Assembly: GCA_041690295.1 (NCBI GenBank)
Contig: JAWLHR010000019.1
Location: 1-62,797, forward strand
Origin: Bdellovibrionales bacterium
GTDB taxonomy: Bacteria > Bdellovibrionota > Bdellovibrionia > Bdellovibrionales > UBA1609
DNA: 62,797 nt
Direction of reading: 5' to 3'
Positions within the stretch are counted from its first letter, which is position 1. Every line of letters begins with the position of its first letter. This document shows positions 6,184 to 31,531 of this stretch, piece after piece. Position numbers and translations under genes: made by a program. The notes beneath the pieces were generated by a model. It saw nothing but the letters and a program-made list of their open reading frames with translations. It had not been told where the DNA came from and did no database searches.

Positions 6184-7278
6184 TTGAAAAATTCCGATCA
6201 GTTTGAATATATGGACGACACATGGTTTGCCGATGGGCCAGTACACTTGTTTATAGATACGTCATGCCTTGTTTCAATGGGCTTCAATTTTTCACACAAG
6301 GGTTTTGTAACCATTGAGAACGGTGTTTCGGCCGGCGACTTAAAGGTCATCTCGACTCAAATTTTAAAAGGCGAATTTTTGAAGCATGCTGCTGCCGCGA
6401 TTGGATCGGACCTTGAAAAGCTCGGCCATCTTCACGCAATTCGAAGTCTATCAGCCGACAAAATTACAGAGATAGAGCGGGTCGCGAAGGAAGCAACTGG
6501 ACAGACCATCTGGGGCAAATTTGAAGCAATGTTTGCGCCAGAAGACATCTCTCGCAATGTAAACTGGCAAGGCGTTTTCGAGGATTACTTTGCGCTGAGA
6601 CCACCGTTCACGCTCAAAAAGAAAGACGAGTTCCCTGACGCTTTCAATTTGAAAATGATTGAAGGGCTAAATCCGGCGCGTTTGATTCTGATTTCCTCTG
6701 ATGGTGACTTTGAGCGATGGATTGCGGGTCGACAAAACATCGTCCTTTATAAAAAACTAAATGAATTTACAGATGCCTACTTGAAAATTCGGGATCCAGC
6801 ATTTGCTGCTGCAGCCATTACCGGTTTTAGAACTCTAAAAGACCAAATCCTTGAACGCCTAAAAGATGAATACAGCGCGGATCACCATTACTCGGTGAAC
6901 TGTTACCACTCGACAGTGCAATCGGGGGAAGTTACTGATTTGTCCGTCGTCTCCCATACATTAACCGCGACAGATCATGAACAAGAGTTTGCGGTATTCC
7001 AAGTCAGGGCACGAGGAACTGCAAACCTGGAACTTGATTGCCCGGTGGTTTCTTGGGATTCGATCGACAAAGAAGAAATTTTCCACGGCTCGAATCAAAA
7101 AACAACGGACGTCGACATCGACATTGAGGCGACCGTGACAATATTTGTAAATCAACAAGATCCGACTGATTCGGATTTCGAAATCAGTGATTCGACTATT
7201 CACGCCGCGGAATTTGATGTCCCCGATGCTTGGGTTTCGTTCTTAGACGATGCAGGCGATGAACACGAGCAAGGTTAA
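6184..7278 (+). CDS. PIN-like domain protein (DUF4935-like)
   Basis: LFIDTS, KKKDEFPDAF and ISSDGDF acidic PIN motifs; acidic, beta-rich C-terminal domain. Confidence 0.75.
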   Translation: MKNSDQFEYMDDTWFADGPVHLFIDTSCLVSMGFNFSHKGFVTIENGVSAGDLKVISTQILKGEFLKHAAAAIGSDLEKLGHLHAIRSLSADKITEIERVAKEATGQTIWGKFEAMFAPEDISRNVNWQGVFEDYFALRPPFTLKKKDEFPDAFNLKMIEGLNPARLILISSDGDFERWIAGRQNIVLYKKLNEFTDAYLKIRDPAFAAAAITGFRTLKDQILERLKDEYSADHHYSVNCYHSTVQSGEVTDLSVVSHTLTATDHEQEFAVFQVRARGTANLELDCPVVSWDSIDKEEIFHGSNQKTTDVDIDIEATVTIFVNQQDPTDSDFEISDSTIHAAEFDVPDAWVSFLDDAGDEHEQG

Positions 7279-7799
7279 ATTTTTCCGACTTCCCCCACTG
7301 ATTGCTGGGCGACGTTGACTGAGAACAGCCCGCGCCGAACTAAAACGTCCATCCAAAAGTTGCCCACCTCCAAAAAGTGGTGATGTAGTTTCTGCGCGTC
7401 TGAGACCTGAGCGAAGGCTTGGAAGATGGGCACGAAATCAAGAATGATTTGACCGAAGTTCCAACCCTTTTCATCCATTGCAATTTGACCGCGGTGGTAC
7501 GTGAGATGCGCCACTTCTTTGCCGACGCGCTTTTGCACTCTGCGCAACGCCGGACTCAAATTGGGCCTCACTACTGCCCATATGATGTCAGACTTCATGA
7601 AGTGCTGCGCGAACGCATCGTCGGGTTGCACGGCGCCGGGATAAAAAAAGAAAAGAAGCGATCGTGCGTGAACGAGAAACGATTCCAAGAGCGCGTTTTT
7701 GACGTTGCCGCTCATTTTTCCATCGGGGAACATCTGTTCTACGGCAGTCGCAAAGAACATCTCCAGTTCATAGGCGAGATGTTCGCCGCTGAATTCCAT
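7275..7799 (-). CDS. HEPN-like helical protein
   Basis: NALLESFLVHARSL and RVGKEVAH (R/K-x-H type HEPN signature); 174 aa. Confidence 0.55.
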   Translation of the reverse strand: MEFSGEHLAYELEMFFATAVEQMFPDGKMSGNVKNALLESFLVHARSLLFFFYPGAVQPDDAFAQHFMKSDIIWAVVRPNLSPALRRVQKRVGKEVAHLTYHRGQIAMDEKGWNFGQIILDFVPIFQAFAQVSDAQKLHHHFLEVGNFWMDVLVRRGLFSVNVAQQSVGEVGKI

Positions 7800-7913
7800 C
7801 AGCGCCTTATCAGCCGGCGTTTTTATGTCTCACCTCCAGCGTCGCAGATTCTCACGGCAGACGTTGCCAAGCAAACGTGGAGACGGTAAAAAGCCGACAT
7901 GTCGCTGGTGTTC

Positions 7914-8021
7914 TTGTTCCCGGGCCGCGCTCGCTGAGCGATGGTGCCGTGGCGCTGAATGAACGCCCTGGCCGCTTGAATGAAAGCGCCAGGTTGGCAG
8001 GTGATGAAAGTCGCAGGCCAT
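7914..8021. repeat. 108-bp direct repeat, copy 1
   Basis: TTGTTCCCGGGCCG...GTCGCAGGCCAT; 107/108 identical to 8257-8364. Confidence 0.95.
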
Positions 8022-8125
8022 CAGGACACCTGACCGCCTCAATCAGTCTGCAATTGGTCATAATCCAGGGAACTCACCGGGTGGCCGCAGATATTAAAGC
8101 CCGGGGCGGCTGGGGCTCCGCGTCG

Positions 8126-8152
8126 TTGACAAAAACCCCAAAAAGCTAAGCT
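8126..8152 (+). promoter_or_regulatory. Possible sigma70-type promoter inside the spacer
   Basis: Perfect TTGACA (8126-8131) and TAAGCT (8147-8152), but the spacing is only 15 nt. Confidence 0.3.
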
Positions 8153-8256
8153 GGATGGGGGGTCGATCATCATGCGAGCGATAGGTTCCGTTCGAGTTGG
8201 CGCGATGTCCCGAGCGCTGACGCAGCTTGTAGGGCTGTTGGGTTTGGTTGCGCTCA

Positions 8257-8364
8257 TTGTTCCCGGGCCGCGCTCGCTGAGCGATGGTGCCGTGGCGCTG
8301 AATGAACGCCCTGGCCGCTTGAATCAAAGCGCCAGGTTGGCAGGTGATGAAAGTCGCAGGCCAT
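8257..8364. repeat. 108-bp direct repeat, copy 2
   Basis: Same as 7914-8021 except GAATCAAAG versus GAATGAAAG, a change in a hairpin loop. Confidence 0.95.
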
Positions 8365-8435
8365 AGCGAACACGGGGCTTCAGGGGGGATTGAGGCTGGG
8401 TGAATCGGTGAGCTCGAGCCGCCAGAAAGTTTGAT

Positions 8436-9653
8436 GTGGCTGGAGAATTTAAGCGGCTGACAGGTACAAATCATCTCGAGCGCGCCTTCCGCATCGTGGA
8501 AGCTAACTCACTTCAATCGTCATCCGAATTGACGAAAGAACAAGTTCGCAAATTCAAGTCTAAACAAGGCCATTACATCAAGAGCATCAGTCAGCAACTC
8601 AACCGCGGAACCTTCGAGTTCGATCAGTCGGTGGGATACCCGAAGAAAAAATCCAGTGGGTCTTCACGCGGAATTGTCTCGACGACGCCCAAAAACAAAG
8701 TTGTGCAACGTGCGCTGCTTGAGGTCCTTCAAGGCACTCAAAAACTCCGGCCATTCTTCGACACGCCAAACAGCTTCGGCGCAGTTGAGGGCCGGAGCGT
8801 GCCGGAGGCTGTCACGGCCGCCCAGAAGGCAATTCGCAATGGCGCGACGTTTTTCTACAAATCAGACATTCGAGATTTTTTTCCCACGGTGGGCCGACAG
8901 TCGGGCCTCGACCGCGTGGCCTCTGTGATCGATGATGCTCGCTTCATGAATGTTCTTCGCGAAGCGCTCATCACGGAGTTATCAAACCTTGAGGAACTCG
9001 GCGAGGATCGCAATCTATTTCCCCTCGGCGAAGACGGCGTCGCGCAAGGCAACTGTCTCTCAGCGCTATTCGGTAACATCTACCTTTTTGATTTTGACCA
9101 GATCACGAACACTGCGGACGTAGTCTGCATACGGTTCTTGGACGACTTCATCATCTTTGGCCCGACCGCTGCCGCGGTTCAGGCCGTGGCACGGAAGGCG
9201 CACAAGGAGCTTAAACGCCTTGGCCTCAAAGCACATGAACCGAAAGATAAAACTGACAAAGCCAAGTTTGGATCGACGAAAGAGGGAGTTGAGTTCTTGG
9301 GATGCTTCATACATTCCGACTTCGCGAAGCCGGCAAATAAATCGATCGGCAGATTGAAGGAGAGCATCGAAGGCATTCTTGAACAGAGTTTGGCGCTTGC
9401 GCGACGGGGCGGCAGCGACATTCAGTTTCAGCGAGCGACCGAGGCCCAAGTGAAATCAAAGGTTGCAAACAAGTGCATCGGCTGGTGGGGCCAGTACCAG
9501 TTTTGCGAGATGCCGGACTTACGTGCATCGATTTCGCGGGACATCTCTGAAATGCTCGATCACTATGATGGTGAACTGGCCAAAATCAAAGCGCGTCTGC
9601 CGGTGCTAGAACGGGCCAGAATTCAGGGAATCTTGCCGAATCAGGGGTGGTAG
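8436..9653 (+). CDS. Group II intron-like reverse transcriptase (G2L4-like), no endonuclease domain
   Basis: RT motifs KVVQRALL, SFG, KSDIRDFF, GVAQGNCLSALFGNIYL, CIRFLDDFII and EFLG; 405 aa. The RT call is firm; the subfamily is inferred from the upstream repeats. Confidence 0.9.
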   Translation: MAGEFKRLTGTNHLERAFRIVEANSLQSSSELTKEQVRKFKSKQGHYIKSISQQLNRGTFEFDQSVGYPKKKSSGSSRGIVSTTPKNKVVQRALLEVLQGTQKLRPFFDTPNSFGAVEGRSVPEAVTAAQKAIRNGATFFYKSDIRDFFPTVGRQSGLDRVASVIDDARFMNVLREALITELSNLEELGEDRNLFPLGEDGVAQGNCLSALFGNIYLFDFDQITNTADVVCIRFLDDFIIFGPTAAAVQAVARKAHKELKRLGLKAHEPKDKTDKAKFGSTKEGVEFLGCFIHSDFAKPANKSIGRLKESIEGILEQSLALARRGGSDIQFQRATEAQVKSKVANKCIGWWGQYQFCEMPDLRASISRDISEMLDHYDGELAKIKARLPVLERARIQGILPNQGW

Positions 9654-9654
9654 A

Positions 9655-10389
9655 ATGATCTCAATATTTTTGGCTCTCGCATTCAATTCCGCCATGGCCA
9701 TGGGACCGGACGGTTTTACAGAAGTTGATCCTTATCCTCCCGGATCAAATGAAATGTCATGCGCTAATTACAGCAACGACGAATGGAAAGTTGGTCTTGA
9801 ACAAGGAAAACTTAAAATTGGCAAATCTGCTTATAATCATACGGTTTCTGTGGAGGTCGCAGATGGGACCATGTTTGGCCGCAATAAAGGTGAATTTGGT
9901 GGAGAGCTCGAGTTCGTAAGGGCGAAGGAATCTCAGAAGATCTTTAAGAAAAATATTTCGGCACTATTTCTCCTTCCCGAGCAGAAAGTCGCGGCATTTG
10001 GTGGTATGGCTCACATGGGAATCGATGAAGGTTATATGCTTGTGCTGGGCGGGCCGCCGGCCGTGTCGAAATGGAAGATTGAGAAGAACGTGAGACTTCC
10101 AGCGAACCCCTATGCGGTCGTCCCCAAAGATGAGGAAAAGTTTTTCTTTGTCACTGGAGATGGGCTGCACTCAGTGGATTGGAAAACAGGAAGTGTCGAC
10201 AAGCTCATCGCATCTTCAATCACGGGCCTGTATCCCAACAGCATTGTTGTTGCCGATGGTGGACATGTCTACGTTGGAATGAGGCACGCGGTCGCGCATT
10301 ACATTCCTGAAAAGAACGGATATAAGGTGAAGTGGCTCGTTAAGAAGAAGTGCACCGGTATCAAATTGTTTGATGGTGTGCCTCATTAG
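9655..10389 (+). CDS. Secreted hypothetical protein, beta-rich
   Basis: Signal peptide MISIFLALAFNSAMA; starts 1 bp after the RT stop. Confidence 0.75.
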   Translation: MISIFLALAFNSAMAMGPDGFTEVDPYPPGSNEMSCANYSNDEWKVGLEQGKLKIGKSAYNHTVSVEVADGTMFGRNKGEFGGELEFVRAKESQKIFKKNISALFLLPEQKVAAFGGMAHMGIDEGYMLVLGGPPAVSKWKIEKNVRLPANPYAVVPKDEEKFFFVTGDGLHSVDWKTGSVDKLIASSITGLYPNSIVVADGGHVYVGMRHAVAHYIPEKNGYKVKWLVKKKCTGIKLFDGVPH

Positions 10390-10392
10390 AGC

Positions 10393-11268
10393 ATGACCGT
10401 GATCGGCTGGCTTCTCAAGAATATCGTGCCTTCGTTTGTAACGGACTGGTTACTTCATCGACACACTGAGAATGTAATTCGCCGCTATCCGAACCTCGGA
10501 AAAATCATTCCGGCAAAATGGCCGAGGGGCAATGAGTACGGCATTACCAACAGGAAAATGCACGAGTTTCAGGCGCAGCGATTGGTTGACGACAACTCAA
10601 TCGATGGGATGAATCTTCCTCTGCTGATCCACAATATCGACTCTCGACTCACAGACGAAAAATCCAGACAGGTGTGGACCTCGATTATGGATCACTTTGA
10701 CTGGTTTGCGCGTGAATTTGCAGATACTCCTGGTTTTCGGCGAGTCTTGGAACCTCTTTGGGATGATTCATGGAGCCCAATGCGACTGTGGGCGGTAGCC
10801 GCGGAAATCTACTTGAGTCGTTTTTTGAAAGAGAATGGCTTCCAAATCGACGGTTTTGATAGAACAATTTCAGGCGCCAAAAAAACTGCGGACATAGCAA
10901 CCATCTGGAAGGGCACCCGCACGTGGATTGATGTGGAAACTCATCGCCTTACAAAACCAGTAGAAGGAGGCCCCGACGACTTTAGAAAGCTCGTAGAGGG
11001 GCGGGCGCTTAAGAAAATTGACGCCAAGTTCAAAACCCTAGCAGCTAATGAAATTGGCATCGTTGCATCGGTTTACTTGGTGAATAAGCGGGCGTTGCTA
11101 CCAAGATTTTCCTATATGAACGATGAGACAAAGCCAGTGCCCGGAAGATCTGCCAACGTTTTCTCGTCAGTTTACTGGCTCATCATAGGCACTCCGTTGG
11201 AAGGGCCACATCGATTCGGCCTCCATCTCATTGACCGAACATTAAAAACTGAGCGAGTTACGAGCTGA
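10393..11268 (+). CDS. Hypothetical protein with PD-(D/E)XK-like nuclease motif
   Basis: AAEIYL...KTADIATIWKGTRTWIDVET; starts 3 bp after the previous stop. Confidence 0.5.
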   Translation: MTVIGWLLKNIVPSFVTDWLLHRHTENVIRRYPNLGKIIPAKWPRGNEYGITNRKMHEFQAQRLVDDNSIDGMNLPLLIHNIDSRLTDEKSRQVWTSIMDHFDWFAREFADTPGFRRVLEPLWDDSWSPMRLWAVAAEIYLSRFLKENGFQIDGFDRTISGAKKTADIATIWKGTRTWIDVETHRLTKPVEGGPDDFRKLVEGRALKKIDAKFKTLAANEIGIVASVYLVNKRALLPRFSYMNDETKPVPGRSANVFSSVYWLIIGTPLEGPHRFGLHLIDRTLKTERVTS

Positions 11269-11727: not shown

Positions 11728-12249
11728 TCAGTGGTCTGAAGACGGTGGCTGCTCCATCACCTTCTGAACGCTCCTCGCGTGCCATTTCCCGCGGCGGGTC
11801 TTGGTGGGCACACCCATTGTGTTCAAGACATCGGCGATCTTCCAAAAGCTGAAGCCTTGGCTTCTTAGGCTTTTGATTCGCTCAATGGCTTCCAGCTCTC
11901 GTTTATGGTTCACGATTTGGCGCTGGCGGTACGCCTCACCGAAACGAAGTTGTGATCGATTCCGCGGTAGGTCTTCCTGAGTCTTTATTGGAATGCCGAA
12001 GCGCTTCAATCCATTGCGAACCGCGCATCGGGTGGAAAAAATCTGCCGTGCGATTTCAGCAATTGTGAGCCCTTCAACAACATATTTCTGGTGGAGGAAA
12101 CTCTTGTCTTTGTAGAGCGGAAAGGGCGAATATATAGCGATTGCAATGGGTTGCAGGGGTGGAAAAAGTGGTTCAGATACCGACCCCGATGGCGCCCCAA
12201 TTTTTCGAAGTGATCGAACCTGATCGCGTGAAATTTGGGATTCATTCTG
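11728..12249 (-). CDS. HTH plus recombinase DNA-binding domain protein, no catalytic domain, start uncertain
   Basis: The frame stays open upstream of the TTG at 12009 (LYKDKSFLHQKYVVEGLTIAEIARQIFSTRCAVRNGLKRFGI), then GFSFWKIADVLNTMGVPTKTRRGKWH. Confidence 0.65.
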   Translation of the reverse strand, partial: QNESQISRDQVRSLRKIGAPSGSVSEPLFPPLQPIAIAIYSPFPLYKDKSFLHQKYVVEGLTIAEIARQIFSTRCAVRNGLKRFGIPIKTQEDLPRNRSQLRFGEAYRQRQIVNHKRELEAIERIKSLRSQGFSFWKIADVLNTMGVPTKTRRGKWHARSVQKVMEQPPSSDH

Positions 12250-12543: not shown

Positions 12544-13320
12544 CTATGTACTGGGGAGAGTTCGGCGTTCTCTTACTAGGCGGAAGCCGGTGAATCGGTA
12601 ATCTGGTTTTGGGTAGGCGCCGTGTCTTCTGGCGCCTCGGCTTAGGTCACCGCCTCGGTGGAAGCTGCCGCCTCTTAGGATAAAGTAGTTTGCGCCGAAA
12701 ACTTCGTACAAGTCGTCCTTGATCAGTTCGCCGCCGGGATAGACCCAGTATCGGGTGTCCACCCACTCTTCTACGTTTCCGGCCAAATCCAGATGTCCGA
12801 ATGGGCCCGGAGCGTGGGCGTACTCAAGGACTGGCGTTGTGGTTCCAATATTTGATTCAACGGTGTTGGCCTTGCTTGGATCAAATGTAGGGCCGTATGG
12901 ATATTCGAGTCGCTCGGGTCCTCGTGCGGCCGCTTCCCATTCGACTTCTTTGGGCAAGCGGTAACGATAAACCGGATCGTTTGCGGACATCCAGGCGCAA
13001 AAAGATTTGGCCTCTGAAATATCTAAACCCCAAGCCGGATGATCGGCGGGCTCTCCCTCGACGAGCGACTCGCAAAGGGCGGCACCGGTGGCTGCGGCAA
13101 ACCGGAGATAGTTCGCATTGGTCACCAAGGTGCGAGACATTTCAAATCCCTCAACCCAAATTTTTAATGACGGGAATTCTTTGCGAAACCAACATTCAAT
13201 GTCTTGGCGAGTGAAATTTTCTAATAATCGATTTTGCCAAAATTCGATCGCCCGGTCCATTTCAGCGGCATCGGTGCCGATTGTGTAATGGCCGGCGGGG
13301 ACGGAAAGAAACTGGTTCAT
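12544..13320 (-). CDS. toxD: Formylglycine-generating enzyme/SUMF1-fold protein, ToxD-like
   Basis: VTNANY, RLPKEVEWEAAARG, DLAGNVEEW, LRGGSF and GFRL; next to WD40 and GTP cyclohydrolase II genes. Confidence 0.75.
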   Translation of the reverse strand: MNQFLSVPAGHYTIGTDAAEMDRAIEFWQNRLLENFTRQDIECWFRKEFPSLKIWVEGFEMSRTLVTNANYLRFAAATGAALCESLVEGEPADHPAWGLDISEAKSFCAWMSANDPVYRYRLPKEVEWEAAARGPERLEYPYGPTFDPSKANTVESNIGTTTPVLEYAHAPGPFGHLDLAGNVEEWVDTRYWVYPGGELIKDDLYEVFGANYFILRGGSFHRGGDLSRGARRHGAYPKPDYRFTGFRLVRERRTLPST

Positions 13321-14990
13321 CAGGGACTCCTGATCGGATAAACGCCTCCATCGTAGGAAGCCGCATAGAATGTTTGATCTTCTGGCCGATAAGCGATCGA
13401 ACTGATCCCTGACCGAGTCGGGCGCTCATTGTAAGTCCACTTTTTCGCTTCGGTGTCGAAAACCGCGACCTGCCCCCCGTAGGACCCAACCGCGATACGC
13501 TTTCCATCGGTCGCAACGCACTTCGCTGAATGATTGACTGGAGTTGGAATGACTTCGACCCGGTCCGATCCGAAAGTGAAAATTCTCAAAAGTCGATCCC
13601 GGCTGACGGATACGAAAGTCTTTTCCCGAAGAAATGCACACCCGTTGGCGATTTTAGCGTGAGCCTCTTCCACGTATTGAATCGGTTCTCCCGTTTCCGG
13701 GTTAAACCAGCAAAGATCCCGTGCGGCTCCCACCGCAAGACCCAGATGATCCGATAGGGCGATCGACTTGATGGCATTCTTTAAAATTCTATTTTGAAAT
13801 AGAATGGCTCCGGTTTCAGTGGACAAGATAAAAATCTCACCGGTGTATCCGCCGACGATAAGATTTTTTCCATTGGTGACGCCGCAGTTCAGCGGCTGCA
13901 TCAGATCGGCGAAAAGACTTCCGGAGGGATAGGTGTAAATCCGCCCCGTTTGTCCGCCGACAAAAAACCGGTCATGAAAAGGAACGATGAAATTGCAAAG
14001 TTCGTTGAAGTTAAAAAGCTGTTTTGCGGCGCCGGCATTGTGAATCTTCAAACAGCCGGCATCGCCAACCGTGATCAATCCGTCGGGCGAGTTTTGAATC
14101 GTGTTGATTCCAAAGGTCTCACCGATGTGATCGGTTTGAAATTTTCCGGTTGGTAAATCCAATTTGGCATAGGTGTCGCCGAAGGATCCAAAAATAACCG
14201 TATGCGGGTCCATAAAGGAGGCGGATCGGGCCCATATCGATGTGGGATAGGGGAGCCGATGCGTTTGAGCCAGCCGACCTTCGTCCACGTCGAACACGCA
14301 GAGATGCCGATCGTAGCTGAGGCTTAGCAGTTGGCGTTCGTCGCTCGATAAAACGAGTCGTTTGATGCCGGCCGAATGGGCTTTGACTCTCGTGAGAGTT
14401 CCGTCTTTTAAAACACAAATTTCACCGTTGTCATTGCCGGCAACAACTGTTCGGTCTCCCGTTATCGCCACAGTGTCGGTCTCCACACCATCCAATTGAA
14501 TTCGTTCAAGTTCGCTGAACTCCGTGACGCTCCAGAGGCGAACGGTTCCGTCATCGCTGCTGGAGATGATACTCTTTCCATCAGCCGACCAGGCCAACGA
14601 CGTGACGTCCGCGGTGTGCCCCTTTAACGTCGCAAGCAAACTCCCTTTTTGGTCGAAGACGCGCACGCAGCCATCGCGGCTGGCGGTGGCGATCATGGAT
14701 CCATCGGGAGAGAAGTTCGCCATTTCAACGTCATCTTCGTGGCCGTGGAGCGTGGCAACCAGTTCGAGAAACGGAACGCGCCAAACACGCGCGGTTCGGT
14801 CGCTGCTGGCGGTCACTAAAAGCTCTCCGGAAGGATGAAAATGACAAGCGTTCACCAAATGATCGTGGTAATTTACGGCGACGCTGTTGCCTTCATCCCA
14901 AAGAATCACGCGATTGTCGTAGCCGGCGGTAGCAATCCAGCGACGGCCGAACGCGGCAACACCGCTAATCGGACTTTTATGCGTTGGCAC
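13320..14990 (-). CDS. toxC: WD40-repeat protein, ToxC-like
   Basis: Repeats HKSPISG..ATAGYDNRVILWD, HDHLVN, GHEDDVEM and GHTADV; 556 aa. Confidence 0.8.
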   Translation of the reverse strand: MPTHKSPISGVAAFGRRWIATAGYDNRVILWDEGNSVAVNYHDHLVNACHFHPSGELLVTASSDRTARVWRVPFLELVATLHGHEDDVEMANFSPDGSMIATASRDGCVRVFDQKGSLLATLKGHTADVTSLAWSADGKSIISSSDDGTVRLWSVTEFSELERIQLDGVETDTVAITGDRTVVAGNDNGEICVLKDGTLTRVKAHSAGIKRLVLSSDERQLLSLSYDRHLCVFDVDEGRLAQTHRLPYPTSIWARSASFMDPHTVIFGSFGDTYAKLDLPTGKFQTDHIGETFGINTIQNSPDGLITVGDAGCLKIHNAGAAKQLFNFNELCNFIVPFHDRFFVGGQTGRIYTYPSGSLFADLMQPLNCGVTNGKNLIVGGYTGEIFILSTETGAILFQNRILKNAIKSIALSDHLGLAVGAARDLCWFNPETGEPIQYVEEAHAKIANGCAFLREKTFVSVSRDRLLRIFTFGSDRVEVIPTPVNHSAKCVATDGKRIAVGSYGGQVAVFDTEAKKWTYNERPTRSGISSIAYRPEDQTFYAASYDGGVYPIRSP

Positions 14991-15579
14991 TTTTGATCTC
15001 CATTAGTAAGAAGTGTCCTTTTTCCTGTTTGGATTTCAAATAGTTGTAATTTTCTTTACAAACATTGGCGGAATGCTGAACCACGCCGCTCACTGTAATG
15101 CCGGCGGCTTCGATCTGTTTGATCTTATCTGGATTGTTAGTAACCAATCGGATCGTGCTGAGCTTCATGGCTTTTAGAATTTCGGCCGCCACGCTGAACG
15201 TCCGTTCGTCGTCATTGAACCCAAGCATGCGGTTGGCTTCAAAGGTGTCGATATTTTTTTCCTGTAATCTGTAGGCCGCGATTTTATTGTAAAGGCCGAT
15301 TCCCCGCCCTTCTTGGCGAAGATAAAGGAGGACCCCACCTTCGGCGACGGCCTGTTTCATAAAGCGATCAAGCTGTGCGCCGCAATCGCACCGAAGTGAG
15401 CCGAAAGCGTCTCCCGTCAAGCATTCCGAGTGAATGCGGACGAGTGGAGTTTGGAGTTTTTCTTGATCTCCAAAAACAACCGCCACATGTTCCTTGCCGT
15501 CACTCAAGTTGTTGAAGGTCAATAATTTGGCCGCGCCGTATTTGGTGGGAAGCTGGACTTCGTCTCGAATGGTCACCAT
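14977..15579 (-). CDS. ribA: GTP cyclohydrolase II (RibA/ToxB-like)
   Basis: VRIHSECLTGDAFGSLRCDCG, RQEGRGIGL and TNNPDK; SD AGGAG before ATG 15579. Confidence 0.95.
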   Translation of the reverse strand: MVTIRDEVQLPTKYGAAKLLTFNNLSDGKEHVAVVFGDQEKLQTPLVRIHSECLTGDAFGSLRCDCGAQLDRFMKQAVAEGGVLLYLRQEGRGIGLYNKIAAYRLQEKNIDTFEANRMLGFNDDERTFSVAAEILKAMKLSTIRLVTNNPDKIKQIEAAGITVSGVVQHSANVCKENYNYLKSKQEKGHFLLMEIKSANA

Positions 15580-15661
15580 TGGATCTCCTAACCCTTTGCC
15601 TGCCGATGGAGATTTCAAGATTTGTGCCTAAAGAACCTGTATTAAACGGCGAGACGGCAGC

Positions 15662-16858
15662 TTATGATCCAAGCGTTGAGACAGTCTCGTCTGGGGATTT
15701 GGACTTAGTTCTTTGATTGAACAGCGGCACGGTAATGAGGACGCCACCCACCAAAGTGACCAGGGTTAGGATGCCGAACAATTGGGCCAATCCGTTGTGG
15801 TCGACCATTTTCCCGGCAAGAGGCGCCGCCACGACAAAGATAGAACGGGAGCCCATGCTCACAACTGAGTTTCCGAAGGCACGATTGGCCGGAGGCAATT
15901 GGCTATTTAACTCGGCGTTAATCCGTCCGTTGATCAAACCTCTTTCCGCTTCAAAAAGGAGCATGAAAAGCGCTCCCATGATGCCAATTTTAAGTGCGAA
16001 TGCGGAGCCCAAAAATCCGATTACCGGAATCAAAATCACGCTGCCGAACAAAACTGAGAACGAAATCCTGGAGTCCCACTTCACGGACATGCGGCTGAAG
16101 ATAATGCTGAGCACGCTGTGGCCGGCCCAGAGTACGCCAAACCAACCGATCGGAATTTTCAGTGCGGACCAAAAAATTTGAATCTGAGCGACCTGTAAAA
16201 GCAGGATCGCCGAGAAAAATATACGATGCGGAATTAAGTAACGAATAAATCGATTTTGCCAGCAGATTTTTTTAAGTGTCTGCCCAAAATGCACCAAATG
16301 ATTGATTCGCGGTGGCGATTGAGTCGGCGTTTCCTTCAGAGTAAGAGCGAGAAAAAAGGACGACCATGCCACCACGGCATTCACCGCAATCGCCAAGTCA
16401 AGGGAGTGTTGGGCCAAAAGACCGCCGATAACAGCCGAGCTGGCGGCTCCCCATTGGGACCACTGAAAGCGGGACGCGTGTGTGGCTGTCCAATTCGTCC
16501 TCTTGTCGGCGCCGTCATAGAGAAGGGCGACATCAGTTCCCGAGAACAAACTGTTTCCGACTCCAATGAAAACAAACGCCCAAATAAAGCCGTGGAATGA
16601 TGGCCAGTAGTAAAGAAGCGTGCCACCGATGCCCTTGAACAGTCCGGCGAGAATAATGGCGCGCCTTCGCCCGAAGGTGTCGGCGATATATCCGGTCGGC
16701 AAATCGAGAAGAAGAAGACAGGCGGAGAAAATGGAGCCGATCAGGCCGATTTGTTCGTACGACAGGCCCTTTGACCGATAATAGGGAACCATGATGGCCT
16801 GAACCACCAAGAAGGACCAGGCGAAATTGAGATACAAAATTTTTTTTATGTTAGACAT
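15662..16858 (-). CDS. MFS transporter
   Basis: About 12 hydrophobic segments; motif A GYIADTFGRR; SGTDVALLYD. Confidence 0.9.
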   Translation of the reverse strand: MSNIKKILYLNFAWSFLVVQAIMVPYYRSKGLSYEQIGLIGSIFSACLLLLDLPTGYIADTFGRRRAIILAGLFKGIGGTLLYYWPSFHGFIWAFVFIGVGNSLFSGTDVALLYDGADKRTNWTATHASRFQWSQWGAASSAVIGGLLAQHSLDLAIAVNAVVAWSSFFLALTLKETPTQSPPRINHLVHFGQTLKKICWQNRFIRYLIPHRIFFSAILLLQVAQIQIFWSALKIPIGWFGVLWAGHSVLSIIFSRMSVKWDSRISFSVLFGSVILIPVIGFLGSAFALKIGIMGALFMLLFEAERGLINGRINAELNSQLPPANRAFGNSVVSMGSRSIFVVAAPLAGKMVDHNGLAQLFGILTLVTLVGGVLITVPLFNQRTKSKSPDETVSTLGS

Positions 16859-18069
16859 GATTCCTCATGGTAAATGGGCTGGAGCTTCTGGAAGATGAAA
16901 TCTAAACGCCGTCTGGCCTGGTCCGCGTCACATCCCCACACCACGATGTAACCATGCCGCTGTTCATTGTTCAAAGGCCGCGGAAGCTTTTGTCCCATGC
17001 GTGCCCAAATGTTCATTTTGATAACATAGGGATGCTGTTTAATTTCATCTAAATTCTCTATGGCTTCCAGGATTCGGCCGCTTTCAAATTTGACAATGCC
17101 AAGGATCGCAACTCCGTTTTTGTAAGGACGGTAGGTGTCGCGCTTCCCAGCCAAGTATTCCAAGTAAAACTCATTGACATCGACTCCATGTGCCCCCTCG
17201 ATGAGAAACGGAATCAGCCCCCCCACGCGCGCGTTGCTTTCGACGATTTTGACTCCCGAAGAAGTCGCGATGACTTCGGTATGCGTGGCGCCGTTTTGAA
17301 AACCAGCCCGATTCAGAAAGCGGGTTACGGTCGAGATGATTTCTCCCGCGAGTTCCTCTGAAATCTGAGCTGGAAAGACGCCGCCATTTTCAATATAGGT
17401 GGGCGGTAAGACCGGAAATTTTTCGGTGATGCCGAGGATCGCATGGCGCCCGTCTTTCGAAATCGCTTCGACGCTGAACTGCGGCCCCTCAAAACACTCT
17501 TCAAGTACCAAACCAAACGGTTCCGGCGACTCACTCCATTTTTCATAGACGGACCGAAGATCGTCGGCTGATTCGATAAATGAGATATTTTTACTTCCGG
17601 ATGAGCAGGCGGGCTTCAATATAGACGGAGGCAGAGGGTTTTGCATCAGCGCAACGAAATCAGCCTTGGTTTCGACTGAAGTGTATCTCACGCCTAGTTC
17701 GGGATCGTCTTGAAGAAGATGACGGAGCTGCAACTTACTTTTGAAGAACTCATAAGTCGAAAGTGGATTGGGCAGGCGATTCAGTTCACTCGCCGTTTTT
17801 AAAAATGCGGGTAAAAATTCATCTGGAACTCCGGGGATTAAGATTGTTTCCGGATATCGGTTAAAAATCGCCTTCAGTCGATCGATCCAGCCGGACCCGC
17901 TCAGAAGATCATCTTGGATAAATTCGTCGGAAAGGCGTTTGACGTCTTGAATGATGGCTTCAAAAAAATTGGGACCCTCAAAACGGTGCCATACGGAAGT
18001 GACGTGATAGCCGAGGCGCTTGGCCGCTTCGACTTGGATCGTAATGGGCGTAAAAAGGACGATGCGCAT
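16846..18069 (-). CDS. ATP-grasp ligase (L-amino-acid-ligase-like)
   Basis: ILKPACSSGS, LEECFEGPQFSVE, HTEV and VESNARVGG. Confidence 0.9.
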   Translation of the reverse strand: MRIVLFTPITIQVEAAKRLGYHVTSVWHRFEGPNFFEAIIQDVKRLSDEFIQDDLLSGSGWIDRLKAIFNRYPETILIPGVPDEFLPAFLKTASELNRLPNPLSTYEFFKSKLQLRHLLQDDPELGVRYTSVETKADFVALMQNPLPPSILKPACSSGSKNISFIESADDLRSVYEKWSESPEPFGLVLEECFEGPQFSVEAISKDGRHAILGITEKFPVLPPTYIENGGVFPAQISEELAGEIISTVTRFLNRAGFQNGATHTEVIATSSGVKIVESNARVGGLIPFLIEGAHGVDVNEFYLEYLAGKRDTYRPYKNGVAILGIVKFESGRILEAIENLDEIKQHPYVIKMNIWARMGQKLPRPLNNEQRHGYIVVWGCDADQARRRLDFIFQKLQPIYHEESCLT

Positions 18070-18071
18070 GG

Positions 18072-18689
18072 TTAGGTTTTTTCCGCCAGAGCAATGAGAT
18101 AGGTGCCGCCATGGGTGGAACTGACCACGCGTTCGGAGTACAAAATGCGAAAATCGGCGAGAGTGGCTTTCAGTTGATCGAGCCTGTAGGCCGTTGCATG
18201 GCGGCCGTCGGCCATTTTCATCGAGACTCCTTCTCTACTGGGGTCATTCGGAGAGTAAACGTTGAGACACAAGAGGCCCCGCGGCCGCAGCAGTGTCCAT
18301 ATTTTGTTAAGATAGGATGGTTGCTCGTCGGGGGGTTGGTGGTGAAAGCACCCATTGTCCAAAACGGCGTCAAAAGATTCCAGTGGAAGATGGAGGGACT
18401 GAAAATCGCCAGCCTTAAAAGAGGCTCTCTCCCCGTGAACATGACTTATGTGGTCCCAATTGGAATGTTTCACTAGGTCGAGGCCGTAAACCGAATGCCC
18501 TTTTTTTAAAAGAGCGAGGCTGTCGATTCCGGAGCCGCAGCCGATATCCAGCACTAACGATGGCTTAGTTAAATGATCATGCAGAATATCAACGGAGCGC
18601 CTTAATCCCAGGTCCTTTGACCACACATCGCGGCTCTGATCGTAGTAACGGGAGAAAATTTCTGTCATAAGATTCAAGTACGTTTTCAT
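18072..18689 (-). CDS. Class I SAM-dependent methyltransferase
   Basis: VLDIGCGSG and FDAVLDNGCFHH; ATG 18689 overlaps the upstream stop (ATGA). Confidence 0.9.
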   Translation of the reverse strand: MKTYLNLMTEIFSRYYDQSRDVWSKDLGLRRSVDILHDHLTKPSLVLDIGCGSGIDSLALLKKGHSVYGLDLVKHSNWDHISHVHGERASFKAGDFQSLHLPLESFDAVLDNGCFHHQPPDEQPSYLNKIWTLLRPRGLLCLNVYSPNDPSREGVSMKMADGRHATAYRLDQLKATLADFRILYSERVVSSTHGGTYLIALAEKT

Positions 18690-19774
18690 AGGGACGAAAT
18701 AAGGTGTCGCCCGGCCGAAGCCGTACGACACCCTTCCTCATTTACTGACCGGTGTTCATGTGTGACCTCCTTGTTTGTTTTCAGCCAAACGCTCTCCTCA
18801 TCACTTGGCTTCGACGGGAAGACCGTGGCCAGTTGCTCATGGCCGAATTCGGCGGCGGCTTTGATGCAACCAAGAAGATTGGCGGCGGCCGAGCTGCCGA
18901 TCTTGAGACCGGTTTGAAGGTAAAAGTCGAGCATCATCTGCCGGCACTGATCATATGAAAAATGAAAGTGGGTGGCCTTGGGGTCGATGGCCGTGACGAA
19001 CTTCTGTTTTTTCCCATAACCCAATCCTCCGGCGCCAATGAACTTCGGTTTGGAATTGGGGCCGCTTTCAGTTCCGAACGGCATCTCCGCCGGCGTCACG
19101 ATGTAGCCTTTCAATTTAGGGAAGCGTCGTCTCAATGCCGATAAAACCCCGCAATAGGTGCCACCCGTTCCAACCGCGGCGACCCAGCCGTCGATGTCGG
19201 CGCCATCAAGTTGGCTTAAAACTTCGGTTCCGGTAAATTCTCGATGCATGTTCAAGTTAGCGGCATTCTCGTGTTGAAAGAGGAAGGAATATTCGGGATG
19301 GGCGCGACTTAACTCAAACGCCTTGTTCATTACGCCCCAGAAGCCTTGTTCTTTATCGACAATGTGGAGTTCACAGTCGAGGAGCCGAAGTCTTCCCACC
19401 ACGGAAGCCGGAGTGGATTCGCTCAAGACCAGGGACATCGGAATGCGCAGTTGATGGCAAATTGAGGCGAGCGCGAGTCCAAGACTTCCGCCCGTGTATT
19501 CGAGAATTCGTTTTGGCCGCTGGTGTCCGCGCAATAACAAGTCATGAAGCATGCCCAAAACAGCGCGATCTTTTACCGTGCCTGAAGAATTCTCCCACTC
19601 CAACTTGGCGAAGATACGGGCACGGTTGACGCGCAATTCGAGAATCGAAGTGCAACCGACCGTCTCGGCATACTCGGAAAGTTTCGGCCATTGTGCCCGA
19701 ATTTCGGGATGGCAAACGAAGCGAAGCCGGCGGGGGGCCGCGACGTATTGAATCAGTTCAATTTTTGTAGACAT
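18686..19774 (-). CDS. PLP-dependent cysteine synthase-family (beta-replacement) enzyme
   Basis: AKLEWENSSGTVKDR (PLP lysine), YTGGSLG, VGTGGT and GSSAAANL. Confidence 0.9.
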   Translation of the reverse strand: MSTKIELIQYVAAPRRLRFVCHPEIRAQWPKLSEYAETVGCTSILELRVNRARIFAKLEWENSSGTVKDRAVLGMLHDLLLRGHQRPKRILEYTGGSLGLALASICHQLRIPMSLVLSESTPASVVGRLRLLDCELHIVDKEQGFWGVMNKAFELSRAHPEYSFLFQHENAANLNMHREFTGTEVLSQLDGADIDGWVAAVGTGGTYCGVLSALRRRFPKLKGYIVTPAEMPFGTESGPNSKPKFIGAGGLGYGKKQKFVTAIDPKATHFHFSYDQCRQMMLDFYLQTGLKIGSSAAANLLGCIKAAAEFGHEQLATVFPSKPSDEESVWLKTNKEVTHEHRSVNEEGCRTASAGRHLISSL

Positions 19775-19943
19775 TGGCCCTCCACAGAGGTGGGCAAATA
19801 TCAATTAAGGTGCCAGGACAAATGGCGGTTGAATAAGTTTAAAGAGGGGATCGAGATGGATTTTCGCATGAAAGTCTAAAATTCCGGACAAGAAATTAGG
19901 ACTGTGGCTTGAACCAGGTATTTTCGACGGTAGATAAAAAATC

Positions 19944-26286: not shown

Positions 26287-27961
26287 TGCGATTCTTCATT
26301 CCGCTTTCTTTGATGGCCTTGCTTTGTGGACAGTGGTCGTATGCCAATGAAACCACACCGGTAAATGGAATTGTTATATCGGATCCCGACACCAGTATTA
26401 CAGTTCCAGACTCTCTACTTGGGACACGCCGTCGGATCTTTCGGAATGTTTGGCCAAAGTACAATCCGCGAGCTCAAAGGACTCGGCTTATTTCCTTTGT
26501 TACTCATGTACCTTGTCTCAACCCATGTGTAACGAGATGGCGGAATCCTGGTGCAATTCTAAGCCGAATAAATGCTCAATCCCTGGATGCGCAGATAGTA
26601 GTTGTAGCGGGGATGATGGGTATGGCGATGAACGTTTTTGTCAGCCGGGACTGGCGAGAAATTCATCCGGAGACTGTATCTGTCCAGGTACAAACAAGGT
26701 AGCCGGACGAGTTGAAGAGTGCACAACTGCTGGCGGCAGCCCATCCACGGGCAGTCCTCCAGGCAGTTCCGCGCCGCCTCCCGGTGATCCCGCCCAAAAG
26801 CAAAAGGACATTCAGGCCTGTTTTCAGCAGGAGCAACAGGCGAGCGATTGCTGTGCAAACCCGGTTGCTTGTATTGGAGGAAGTATTTCTGGTGCCATCA
26901 GACTGAGGCCGGGCGAAGGTATAGCGGAAACCTGTCGGCGAATGCAGGAGGCGAGTCTGAGAGACGCGCAGATTCGCAATCAAGCGGCCAATGCCTGCAC
27001 GCAGCGCCAGTCCGCTTGTAAATCGTCCTGTCAGTCGGCACTGAGTAAATGGGGCACCGATAGTTCGGCAAAGTCGCTTCTTGAACAGCGGCTTCAATCC
27101 TGCGAATCGTTTACAACCAGCCGTGTGCTTCTGGGTATGGCGGGTACGAATTCAGCGGAGAATTCGGCGCTTGCGGAGCGCTGTAATCAAGTCACAAGAT
27201 CAGATCTTCAGAGTACGGGAGGATCTCCCACGAACCGAGATGGAACTTCACCCGGTGCGGGTGGTGGGTTTCCGTCACTTGGCGGATCCCCTGGCAGTCC
27301 GGGATCGGACCCCTACAATTCGCCCTATCAACAGGCCATGCAATACTGTGAGTTCAACCCCAACGACCCACGTTGCCGGGCTTTGCAAGAGACACCTGAA
27401 ACGCCAAAGGGCAAGGTGGGATTTGAAACCGGAGGTGTTGGAGGAGCGCCCAACTTTGATCTTAGAGGCGGAGATGGACCTAAAACACAATTCAATATGG
27501 CCGAAAGCTACGATGCCAAAAATCACGCTCAAGTGAATCCGGTTGCCAATAATGCGGGCGGTGGAATTCCCGGGCAAGGGAGTCAGGGCATGGGGGCCCG
27601 TATGGATCAGCCTCATCGGGGTGGTGCGCCCCCGCCCAGCTACACAACGGATGTCTTGAAAGGCTTCCAAGGTGGTGGCGGCGGCAGTGCTCCAGCCAAC
27701 GCGATGAATGCGAACGCCGAAGGCGGTTGGTCATCCTACGGCAGAGGCGGGCCCCGGCGAGGACCGGCCAGCATGGACAAAGGCATCGATTTACGCCAGT
27801 TTCTTCCGGGCGGTTCCCGCGATCCTCGTATGGTCGGCGGACGCGTTCGTCATGCGGGACTTGGAAAAGGTATTCATCCTCGCTCCGTGAACTTGTTCCA
27901 TCGCATTTCGACAAAGTTTCGCGAAAAATGCCGTTTAGGGATTCTCGCCGACTGCCGGTGA
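26287..27961 (+). CDS. Secreted Cys-rich/Gly-Pro-rich protein, copy A (apparent 1-nt frameshift after the signal peptide)
   Basis: Signal peptide MRFFIPLSLMALLCGQWSYA is in one frame and the body in another. Adding one A at 26350-26352 joins them. Paralogue of 29852-31531. Confidence 0.75.
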
Positions 27962-29851: not shown

Positions 29852-31531
29852 GTGGCAAATCGTTTGATCTGGACCTATGTTCCGCGAATTTTACTTCTTG
29901 TACTTTTGACAACAGGTCATCTTGCCTTTTCGCTTGAAGGTACGAATAATGTCGATGGCTGTCTCAATCAATCATACTCAGGGACTCATAAAGAAGAAAT
30001 TATTGGGAAATGTTTGCTCTGCTTAAACGAAGCGGGGGCGATGAACCAAAATCGGGCAATGATGTGTGAGCAGGCAGGGATTTCCTGGTGCAATGCTAGA
30101 GCGGATAAATGCACCAATCCAGGGATTGGCTGTAGAGATAAGAGTTGTGGAGCCGTCGATTACAATGATGAATGTCCGCCGGGTTCGGCTCTGAACTCCG
30201 CAGGCGATTGCGTTTGCTCAGGTACAAACAAAATTGCTCTTCGACCCGAGGACTGCGCGACCGCCGGAGGCGGCGGTGGCCCAGGCTCGGATCCGAAACC
30301 CCCAGGGAGCACTCCGCCCGCGGACGATCCGGCGCAGAAACAGAAAGATATTCAAGCCTGTCTTCAGCAGCAGCAACAGGCCAGTGATTGCTGTTCAAAT
30401 CCGATTGCCTGTATTGGGGGGAGCCTTTCAGGTGAAATCCGCCCGAAGCCCGGTGAGGGCATAGCGGAGACCTGTCGGAGGATGCAGGAGGCGAGTCTCA
30501 GGGACTCGCAGATTCGCAATCAGGCGGCCAACGCCTGCACTCAGCGCCAATCCGCTTGTAAGTCATCCTGCCAGTCGGCCCTAAGTAAATGGGGATCCGA
30601 CGCTTCGGCCAGATCGCTCATCGATCAACAGATTCAGGCCTGTGACTCGCTGACGAGTAGCCGGGTGCTCCTTGGCATGTCTGGGATGAGCTCGACGAAA
30701 AATTCCGCCCTGGCGGACCAGTGTAACGAAGTGGCTCGCTCGGATCCGCAGAGCACGGGTCCAGGGGGATCCTCCCCATCTAATCAAAACGGCCAGCCGG
30801 GTGGCGGGACTTCGCCGGGAGCCGGTGGAGGCTTTCCCACTCTGGGTGGCTCACCGAGTACGCCAGGAATGGGCTACAACTCGCCCTCGCCCTATCAGCA
30901 GGCCATGCAGTACTGTGAATTCAACCCCAATGATCCGCGCTGTCGGGCCTTACAAGAAAAGACGGAAACTCCTAAAGGCAAAGCGGGATTTGAGACAGGC
31001 GTCAGTGATGTGGATCCCACGTTCAATTTCGAAGGGGATGATGGGCCCCGTACGCAATTCAATATGGCCGAAAGCTATGATGCCAAGAACCATGCGCAAG
31101 TGAGCCCCATCACCAATAATTCGGGTGGTGGGATTCCCGGGCAAGGCGGCCAGGGAATGGGGGCCCGCATGGATCAGCCACGTCGAGGAGGCGCGCCTCC
31201 GCCCAGTTACACCACGGATGTGCTTAAAGGCTTTCAGGGTGCGGGCGGCGGGAGCGCTCCGCCTGGTGCGATGAATCCCAACAGTGAAGGTGGGTGGTCG
31301 TCCTACGGAGGAGGAGGGCAGCGCCGTCGAGGGCCGGCCAGTTTAAATGGCAGTATTGATTTACGCCAGTTTCTCCCGGGTGGAGCGCGGGATCCGCGCA
31401 TGGTGGGCGGACGCTATCGCCATGCCGGCCTCGAGAAAGGGATTCACCCGCGCTCGGTGAACCTGTTCCATCGCATTTCAATTAAGCTCCACGAGAAATG
31501 CCGCTTAGGCGTTCTCTCCGACTGCTGGTGA
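29852..31531 (+). CDS. Secreted Cys-rich/Gly-Pro-rich protein, copy B
   Basis: Signal peptide; shares QKQKDIQAC, YCEFNPNDPRC and HPRSVNLFHRIS with copy A. Confidence 0.85.
   Translation: MANRLIWTYVPRILLLVLLTTGHLAFSLEGTNNVDGCLNQSYSGTHKEEIIGKCLLCLNEAGAMNQNRAMMCEQAGISWCNARADKCTNPGIGCRDKSCGAVDYNDECPPGSALNSAGDCVCSGTNKIALRPEDCATAGGGGGPGSDPKPPGSTPPADDPAQKQKDIQACLQQQQQASDCCSNPIACIGGSLSGEIRPKPGEGIAETCRRMQEASLRDSQIRNQAANACTQRQSACKSSCQSALSKWGSDASARSLIDQQIQACDSLTSSRVLLGMSGMSSTKNSALADQCNEVARSDPQSTGPGGSSPSNQNGQPGGGTSPGAGGGFPTLGGSPSTPGMGYNSPSPYQQAMQYCEFNPNDPRCRALQEKTETPKGKAGFETGVSDVDPTFNFEGDDGPRTQFNMAESYDAKNHAQVSPITNNSGGGIPGQGGQGMGARMDQPRRGGAPPPSYTTDVLKGFQGAGGGSAPPGAMNPNSEGGWSSYGGGGQRRRGPASLNGSIDLRQFLPGGARDPRMVGGRYRHAGLEKGIHPRSVNLFHRISIKLHEKCRLGVLSDCW

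Follow-up and report, generated by a model that had tools for sequence, protein, structure and literature searches.

What purpose is served by two nearly identical repeats in front of a bacterial reverse transcriptase (RT) gene? The question is raised by a locus in a 62,797-nucleotide stretch of DNA from a Bdellovibrionales bacterium (contig JAWLHR010000019.1, assembly GCA_041690295.1), hereafter the window. The earlier note on this DNA had described two 108-bp direct repeats with one loop mismatch, ending 71 bp before an RT of 405 aa; coordinates, period, and gap were all confirmed. The repeats, R1 and R2 (108 nt each), start 343 nt apart and enclose a spacer of 235 nt. Their sole mismatch, G7982/C8325, lies within a hairpin loop, and the gap of 71 nt separates the end of R2 from the RT start at 8436. 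No further copy of the repeat sequence was found anywhere in the genome searched. Features of the locus are given in Table 1.

Table 1. Features of the RT locus (window positions)
Feature	Position	Strand	Description
Predicted upstream promoter P1	7864–7892	+	TTGCCA-17-TAAAAA; start near 7900, about 14 nt before R1; weak in the window
C-terminal half of the hidden gene	7913–8149	+	R1 and 5' part of the spacer; 78 codons; stop TAA 8147–8149
Repeat 1 (R1)	7914–8021	+	Predicted 5' end of the leader RNA; codes for the middle part of the hidden protein
Long-range helix, 5' strand	8036–8044	+	Pairs with 8388–8396; pair probability 0.95–0.98
Conserved spacer helix	8056–8086	+	8056–8060 with 8082–8086; RNAalifold consensus
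Predicted internal promoter P2	8126–8152	+	TTGACA-15-TAAGCT; overlaps the end of the C-half
G-rich ribosome site of the N-half	8157–8162	+	Precedes ATG 8172
N-terminal half of the hidden gene	8172–8366	+	ATG 8172; R2 in frame; stop TAG 8364–8366; 64 aa
Repeat 2 (R2)	8257–8364	+	Second 108-nt copy
3' structured element	8388–8417	+	Local hairpin, or partner of the long-range helix; putative RT binding or priming region
G2L4-like reverse transcriptase	8436–9653	+	405 aa; FLDD; without DNA-binding, endonuclease, or RNase H domain; Pfam RVT_1 only

The closest solved relative of the RT was G2L4 (PDB 9D5X, 9D4S; E 2e-55, residues 5–399), and the next best was the group II intron RT GsI-IIC (E 3e-15), which bears out the likeness to G2L4 proposed before. 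The active site is FLDD, not the YIDD of G2L4; relatives sharing the same leader also show FIDD, FVDD, YVDD, and YLDD. In passages of PMC11761039 the RT3a knot of G2L4 is defined by a 9-aa insertion with R190/R191. The window RT has this insertion, 2 aa shorter and without both knot arginines, as do most non-Pseudomonas relatives. In a FastTree reconstruction of 66 rows, 56 formed one clade with support 100 against 10 distant viral RTs, with no group II intron or other G2L references included. The window RT was a deep, long branch in this clade, which also holds a YIDD enzyme of P. aeruginosa whose locus has the repeats. Because of the FLDD site, the shorter insertion without arginines, the deep branching, and a tree without group II intron references, we name the RT G2L4-like rather than strict G2L4. 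No other RT match was found in the genome of the window, and none of 60 related genomes searched contained the RT. Among the relatives, all 15 long RTs having a repeat pair carried RNase H, and the 10 such forms placed in the tree formed one clade.

Known RT systems were compared as well. The window RT scored 39.5 bits with the Drt2 model (cut-off 390) and 35.8 bits with PADLOC Drt2. A group II intron was rejected: there was no Rfam match at E up to 1 in 7000–10500, and the score with TIGR04416 was 115 bits (cut-off 300). A retron was rejected since the leader has no listed inverted repeats bounding an msr-msd and the retron St85 model gave 41.5 bits (cut-off 235). For a DGR, adenine-directed differences between the repeats would be expected; a single G/C mismatch was present in the window, and median repeat identity in the family was 99.3%.

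The set of loci comprised 164 related loci plus the window and was not dereplicated; 119 of these had at least 800 nt upstream of the RT. Retention of the repeats in homologues had been named beforehand as a test, and a repeat pair was present in 92 of the 119 loci, the window included. Of the remaining 27, 16 keep one repeat with the spacer lost, and 24 match the profile of the 3' element; the single-repeat loci may represent real deletion or assembly collapse. Repeat length in the family was 108–150 nt. Sequences diverge between loci; within a locus, the two copies had the above median identity, and 71 of 84 pairs were at least 98% identical. Four loci, one locus with ambiguous bases, and loci with a repeat shorter than 100 nt were dropped from the later counts, which left 84. 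No conserved partner gene was detected among 132 neighboring ORFs, only scattered restriction, toxin–antitoxin, and mobility genes. Besides one locus already in the set, a motif search of viral contigs picked up two unrelated phage contigs, and these matches were put down to chance.

Several single loci deviate from the common layout. In a Pseudomonas subgroup (L009, L024, L109, L127, L132, and L146) the period is 485–492 nt, with a diverged duplication of about 100–115 nt inside the spacer. In L146 (2249–4027) the G2L4-like RT is immediately followed by another RT, which is itself fused with a trypsin-like peptidase. In L163 (2658–6268), on a phage contig, the RT and the repeat pair are flanked by a lambda-type portal gene on one side and a major capsid gene on the other. 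In one relative's contig (run X2, record 4, aligned to 8258–8431), a sequence like that upstream of R1 is joined straight to one repeat and the 3' element, by deletion or assembly collapse.

The locus is part of an island that also carries a large serine recombinase, a primase-polymerase, a DUF3987 protein, a resolvase, and a PIN protein. Most of these form an integrative-element core at the contig edge (54–5746: large serine recombinase, DUF3987 protein, primase-polymerase, resolvase), with recombinase fragments near 11728–12009. A PIN_12 domain protein of 364 aa (6184–7278), without a PADLOC match, adjoins the RT leader. At 12544–19804 there is a cluster resembling a biosynthesis and export operon, its genes named from translations alone (formylglycine-enzyme-like, WD40, GTP cyclohydrolase II-like, MFS, ATP-grasp, methyltransferase, and cysteine synthase-like). 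An identical 33-nt weak match to the leader occurs at 27009 and at 30549, 3540 nt apart, and hints at a repeated sequence.

The earlier note had drawn each repeat as a chain of four hairpins. Three of them were present in the minimum-energy structure, and GGCG-ctgaatgaa-CGCC was absent. Folding of the isolated repeats was modest (z −2.3 and −2.1 versus shuffles), and no inverted repeat of at least 12 nt was listed in the leader, so the repeats are not palindromes. A long hairpin at 7815–7896, which had been considered part of the system, folds as drawn, but its z was −1.8 and 12 of 200 shuffles folded equally well. With little conservation in the upstream alignment of 73 loci, it was rejected as a piece of the RNA.

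Across homologous leaders, covarying helices were found in the repeat, in the spacer, and at long range, in agreement with a structured leader. Two repeat helices were 87% paired with 68 two-sided changes versus 20 in shuffles (0/500), and the long-range helix, joining bases after R1 with bases after R2, was 84% paired with 83 two-sided changes versus 30.7 (0/500 row shuffles); relatedness among the loci inflates both of these tests. The spacer helix had up to 14 two-sided changes per pair (RNAalifold, 45 sequences). The long-range helix was part of the minimum-energy fold of just 29 of the 84 full leaders. The leader had no match in Rfam. Contigs from two RNA-library runs cover 7921–8189 and 8113–8423 and do not show strand or level. 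The proposal that the leader is the cognate template RNA of the RT stands as far as the conserved folded RNA, the repeats kept in homologues, and a terminal redundancy that fits strand transfer are concerned, and it is not supported for the hairpin at 7815–7896.

Periods in the family cluster in steps of three: among 90 distinct units, the period modulo 3 was 1 in 59, 2 in 20, and 0 in 11. Because of this clustering, we searched for a reading frame. In the window, a frame opening in the spacer (the N-half) reads through R2 and stops at its end, with a hydrophobic segment at residues 16–30 (hydropathy 2.45). Read in R1, the same frame extends over 42 further codons of the spacer's 5' part before it meets a stop (the C-half). 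The halves lie in reversed order and are not contiguous; a tandem or circular unit would give 106 codons. The C-half has a single in-frame start, a GTG at 7877; it lies before the predicted start of transcription and lacks a Shine-Dalgarno sequence. The C-half frame of the window matched the family profile with E 1.6e-4 in a small database. The P. aeruginosa locus L202 has the same two halves, the promoter motif, and the stop at the repeat end; in RefSeq, the N-half alone is annotated in P. aeruginosa, as a hypothetical protein.

The frame is kept across the family. The following counts out of 70 refer only to loci having the start motif, the window excluded. In unjoined DNA, the 111 nt after R1 were stop-free in the N-half frame in 68 of 70 loci versus 7 and 13 in the other frames; after thinning to RTs below 60% identity, the values were 45 of 47 versus 7 and 10. 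When the unit was circularized, 68 of 70 loci had 95 or more open codons in this frame, versus 1 and 3 for the other same-strand frames. The opposite-strand frames were open in only 2, 7, and 5, by which a minus-strand gene was ruled out. An endless ORF of the DRT2 type was ruled out by the period and the stop codons. The hydrophobic segment occurred in the hidden-gene frame in 64 of 68 loci versus 1 and 0 in the other frames. A stop in the genomic frame within −6 to +21 nt of the R2 end was present in 45/70, compared with 46/140 for the other frames; the codon is TAG in the window and TGA and TAA in two near-identical relatives (single low-depth contigs). In one such relative, also a single low-depth contig, five of seven changes in the N-part were synonymous. 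Just 9 of 65 loci had 75 nt or more of open C-half frame upstream of R1, that is, no start of the C-half is conserved. DNA-only alignments of 45 leaders (the window and 44 of 75 distinct loci, mostly forms without RNase H) gave one frame class in 45, 37, 43, 43, 41, and 43 leaders for six coding segments, and spacer lengths changed by triplets in all 45. After R2 the length classes of the same leaders split 20/14/11, and the frame is not kept there.

At the amino acid level, conservation was weak. Over 20 disjoint pairs, pN/pS of the hidden gene was 0.85 (shifted frames 1.01 and 0.87), and there was no excess of third-position changes (374/363/400). The RT gene in the same pairs had pN 0.19 and pS 0.68, and synonymous divergence of the hidden unit was 0.20. 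From the pN/pS value, the lack of third-position excess, and a synonymous divergence far below that of the RT, it follows that the unit is constrained mainly at the nucleotide level. Many conserved residues of the hidden protein fall on promoter or helix bases. At the protein level, frame and hydrophobicity seem to be what is under selection. There was no match in Pfam, NCBIfam, or Atlas, and the structural model was unusable (pLDDT 53, an N-terminal helix only). Taken from sequence analysis, the presence of a circularly permuted gene in the leader is well supported; its product is predicted to be membrane-protein-like, about 110 aa in the family and 106 aa in the window. This gene was missed by the earlier note and would give the template jump a purpose.

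Putative expression signals were found before R1 and in the spacer. P1 of the window was read from the sequence, and a strict promoter scan detected nothing there. A −10-like hexamer, TAnnnT, occurred within 30 nt of R1 in 61 of 76 loci versus 20.8 expected, with a peak at −10 to −14. Its position just before R1 makes it likely that the RNA starts with R1, as expected of a repeat used for strand transfer. TTG-N15/16-TAnnnT was present at the end of the C-half in 55 of the 70 loci with the start motif. When the best of several candidate starts was taken, 67 of 68 loci had a +1-frame start preceded by a Shine-Dalgarno match of at least 4/6, and such a match preceded the ATG beside the conserved motif in 19 of 68; all 21 loci without the motif-adjacent ATG have the +1 start. 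Since the Shine-Dalgarno matches favor the +1 start and all loci without the ATG have it, a −1 shift at C-AAA-AAC is suggested, and most relatives probably enter the hidden frame in this way. The window has no start motif, and its N-half starts directly in frame. The tetramer A_AA.C is missing from the six frameshift tetramers that passages of PMC4066793 name as efficient in E. coli. In 20 of 48 loci with a period of 1 modulo 3, the stop of the C-half overlaps the +1 start as NTGA; this stop–start coupling matters only in tandem units. The 3-bp hairpin of the conserved ATGCAAAAACGTGCC motif never covaries. The sigma-54 consensus has a GG-GC spacing of 10 nt, and an antisense sigma-54 promoter was rejected for this motif, in which the spacing is 9 nt.

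We also looked for the joined gene itself. A profile of natural C-halves gave 138 protein matches among 1.8 billion representatives. With one more match added, 8 of 139 were full-length hidden proteins from the start motif to the C-end. Four of these came from contigs of 507–525 nt, one from a contig of 893 nt, and one from a contig of 1116 nt; two proteins had no contig. Lengths of 507–525 nt correspond to about one unit plus a k-mer overlap, which would fit stand-alone loops and can equally result from assembler behavior. Locus L001 has three repeats, a tandem duplication, and an intact gene copy; only two repeats are present in L081, which appears to be this locus in a different assembly. 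The tiny contigs and the third repeat of L001 can be assembler loops. No repeat joint was found in four public runs, of which the low-depth contigs cover 7921–8431, small shares of the stretch, and none the RT gene; this missing cover carries no weight as evidence.

With a somewhat better than even chance of being correct, we propose that the RT reverse-transcribes the leader RNA and switches from one repeat to the other, which would give concatemeric or circular DNA with the intact gene. The supporting features are those shown above by sequence comparison: the layout, the shared frame, the stop at the R2 end, the triplet changes, the covarying helices, the promoter and ribosome motifs, and the RNase H fusion of one clade. 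P1 would transcribe an RNA from R1 to beyond the 3' element. The RT would start near the 3' element and copy R2, the spacer, and R1 up to the RNA 5' end. RNase H, fused or from the host, would then remove the RNA, the cDNA end would anneal to R2 with the aid of the helix that pairs the repeat ends, and copying would continue. On the double-stranded product, expression from P2 would yield a single protein made up of N-half, repeat, and C-half, with a length of 106 aa in the window. In most relatives, the −1 shift at C-AAA-AAC would act as a second brake, and the window gene would start directly in frame. The weakest step is the last one, a membrane-targeted, growth-limiting effector released upon phage infection or stress; we hold it to be possible, with somewhat more against it than for it, and a role in defence is a guess. 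Passages of Park et al. (2022; bioRxiv 10.1101/2022.03.14.484287) report that G2L4 prefers DNA over RNA templates and uses primers of at least 10 nt poorly on generic substrates. This preference for DNA templates and short primers counts against the favored route, unless the cognate RNA changes it. For RTs of the G2L4 clade in general, which are known as DNA-repair enzymes, we consider it an even question whether they are gene-assembling RT–RNA systems, in which retrovirus-like strand transfer at terminal repeats would turn a silent permuted gene into a membrane effector expressed from circular or concatemeric DNA, with the frameshift as a second lock and stop–start coupling between units.

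The permuted gene could instead be rebuilt in DNA, where recombination by RecA or by RT end-joining would either duplicate the unit in tandem or release it as a 343-bp circle, without any cDNA. Near-identical repeats of more than 100 bp suit such a process, as do the 16 of 27 pair-less loci with one repeat and no spacer, the tandem duplication in L001, and the end-joining of G2L4 on DNA described in passages of Park et al. (bioRxiv 10.1101/2022.03.14.484287). We nevertheless regard it as unlikely. Recombination does not need R1 at the transcription start (61/76), covarying RNA helices, an RNase H fusion, or a constant linkage to the RT, and the single-repeat loci can be assembly collapse. The halves might also be joined in RNA, the long-range helix guiding RNA circularization or a backward ribosome hop and the RT only copying or chaperoning the RNA. 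The helix does bring together exactly the two points to be joined; for this join, however, one repeat copy suffices, so 99% identity over 108–150 nt is left unexplained, and no ligase or nuclease is conserved nearby. We judge a join in RNA to be very improbable.

Another reading takes the RT as a stand-alone DNA-repair polymerase, as proposed by Park et al. (bioRxiv 10.1101/2022.03.14.484287) and in accordance with the knockout and biochemical data in passages of that paper. The repeats would then act as a regulatory RNA and also encode a leader peptide of 64 aa, and constraint on RNA and promoter would leave the C-half open as a side effect. The pN/pS of 0.85, a joined protein without family or fold, and the RefSeq annotation of the N-half alone in P. 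aeruginosa speak for it. Yet RNA constraint chooses no frame, and the N-half frame is open after R1 in 45 of 47 divergent loci; spacer length changes by triplets in 45 of 45 leaders; the C-half has no conserved start, being open at least 75 nt upstream in 9 of 65 loci; and the identity of the two repeat copies is left unexplained. This reading also appears improbable to us.

The proposed copying of the leader RNA with strand transfer between the repeats resembles two known systems. In retroviruses and LTR elements, minus-strand transfer uses the R region, a repeat that begins at the RNA 5' end and recurs near the 3' end. Similarly, R1 lies at the predicted RNA 5' end and recurs near the 3' end, and an RT–RNase H fusion exists in one clade. 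In contrast, the RT is of a non-LTR type, the repeats enclose only 235 nt, with the RT gene outside them, and the unit has no integrase or capsid, so the element would not copy itself. With DRT2/neo (Tang et al. 2024, as reviewed in PMC13434031; see also PMC12039810) the locus shares an RT beside a folded RNA and a permuted gene completed only in tandem copies, here according to sequence analysis. Weak amino acid conservation, hydrophobic bias, and low-confidence models, as described for the Neo product in passages of PMC12039810, are common to both. The RT clades differ, however, and the jump occurs via ACA trinucleotides in DRT2 and is proposed to occur via 108-nt repeats here. In the window the gene is sense to the RNA, with an intact internal promoter. 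The DRT2 unit is a multiple of 3 with an endless ORF, whereas the period here is mostly not a multiple of 3 (343 in the window) and the protein is finite, of about 110 aa. The proposed mechanism would combine a DRT2-like logic with retrovirus-like terminal repeats.

The P. aeruginosa G2L4 locus shares with the window the two-repeat layout, a spacer of about 240 bp, the mobile-island setting, and probably the RT clade, and both RTs lack a C-terminal DNA-binding or endonuclease domain. The two differ in the active site (YIDD versus FLDD), and the window has repeats of 108 bp and a direct in-frame start. In passages of Park et al. (bioRxiv 10.1101/2022.03.14.484287), about 70% of G2L4 genes are reported to be preceded by repeats of about 140 bp with spacers of about 240 bp, with RNA depth over the repeats 20-fold above the RT gene and a modulating effect on survival of damage; the repeats are given no function, and the same passages mention no gene, structure, or template role for them. 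By term search, the repeats are not mentioned in the 2025 structure preprint (PMC11761039) or the 2026 imaging paper (PMC13728195), nor is G2L in the consulted parts of the 2026 review (PMC13434031). Our literature search, mainly of non-subscription papers, found none that gives these repeats a gene or template role; the supplements of Park et al. could bear on this. The RT clade and the repeats are already known; to these are added a permuted gene with good support and a proposed gene-assembly mechanism.

Gene callers detect the halves only, and the family is therefore invisible in annotation. If the proposal is true, it would explain repeats described in 2022 without a function and offer a direct test. 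It suggests that a structurally solved "domesticated repair" RT would have a cognate RNA and an output gene. Independently of DRT2, bacteria would have a second route for hiding a gene from the linear genome, and their strand transfer would parallel that of retroviruses.
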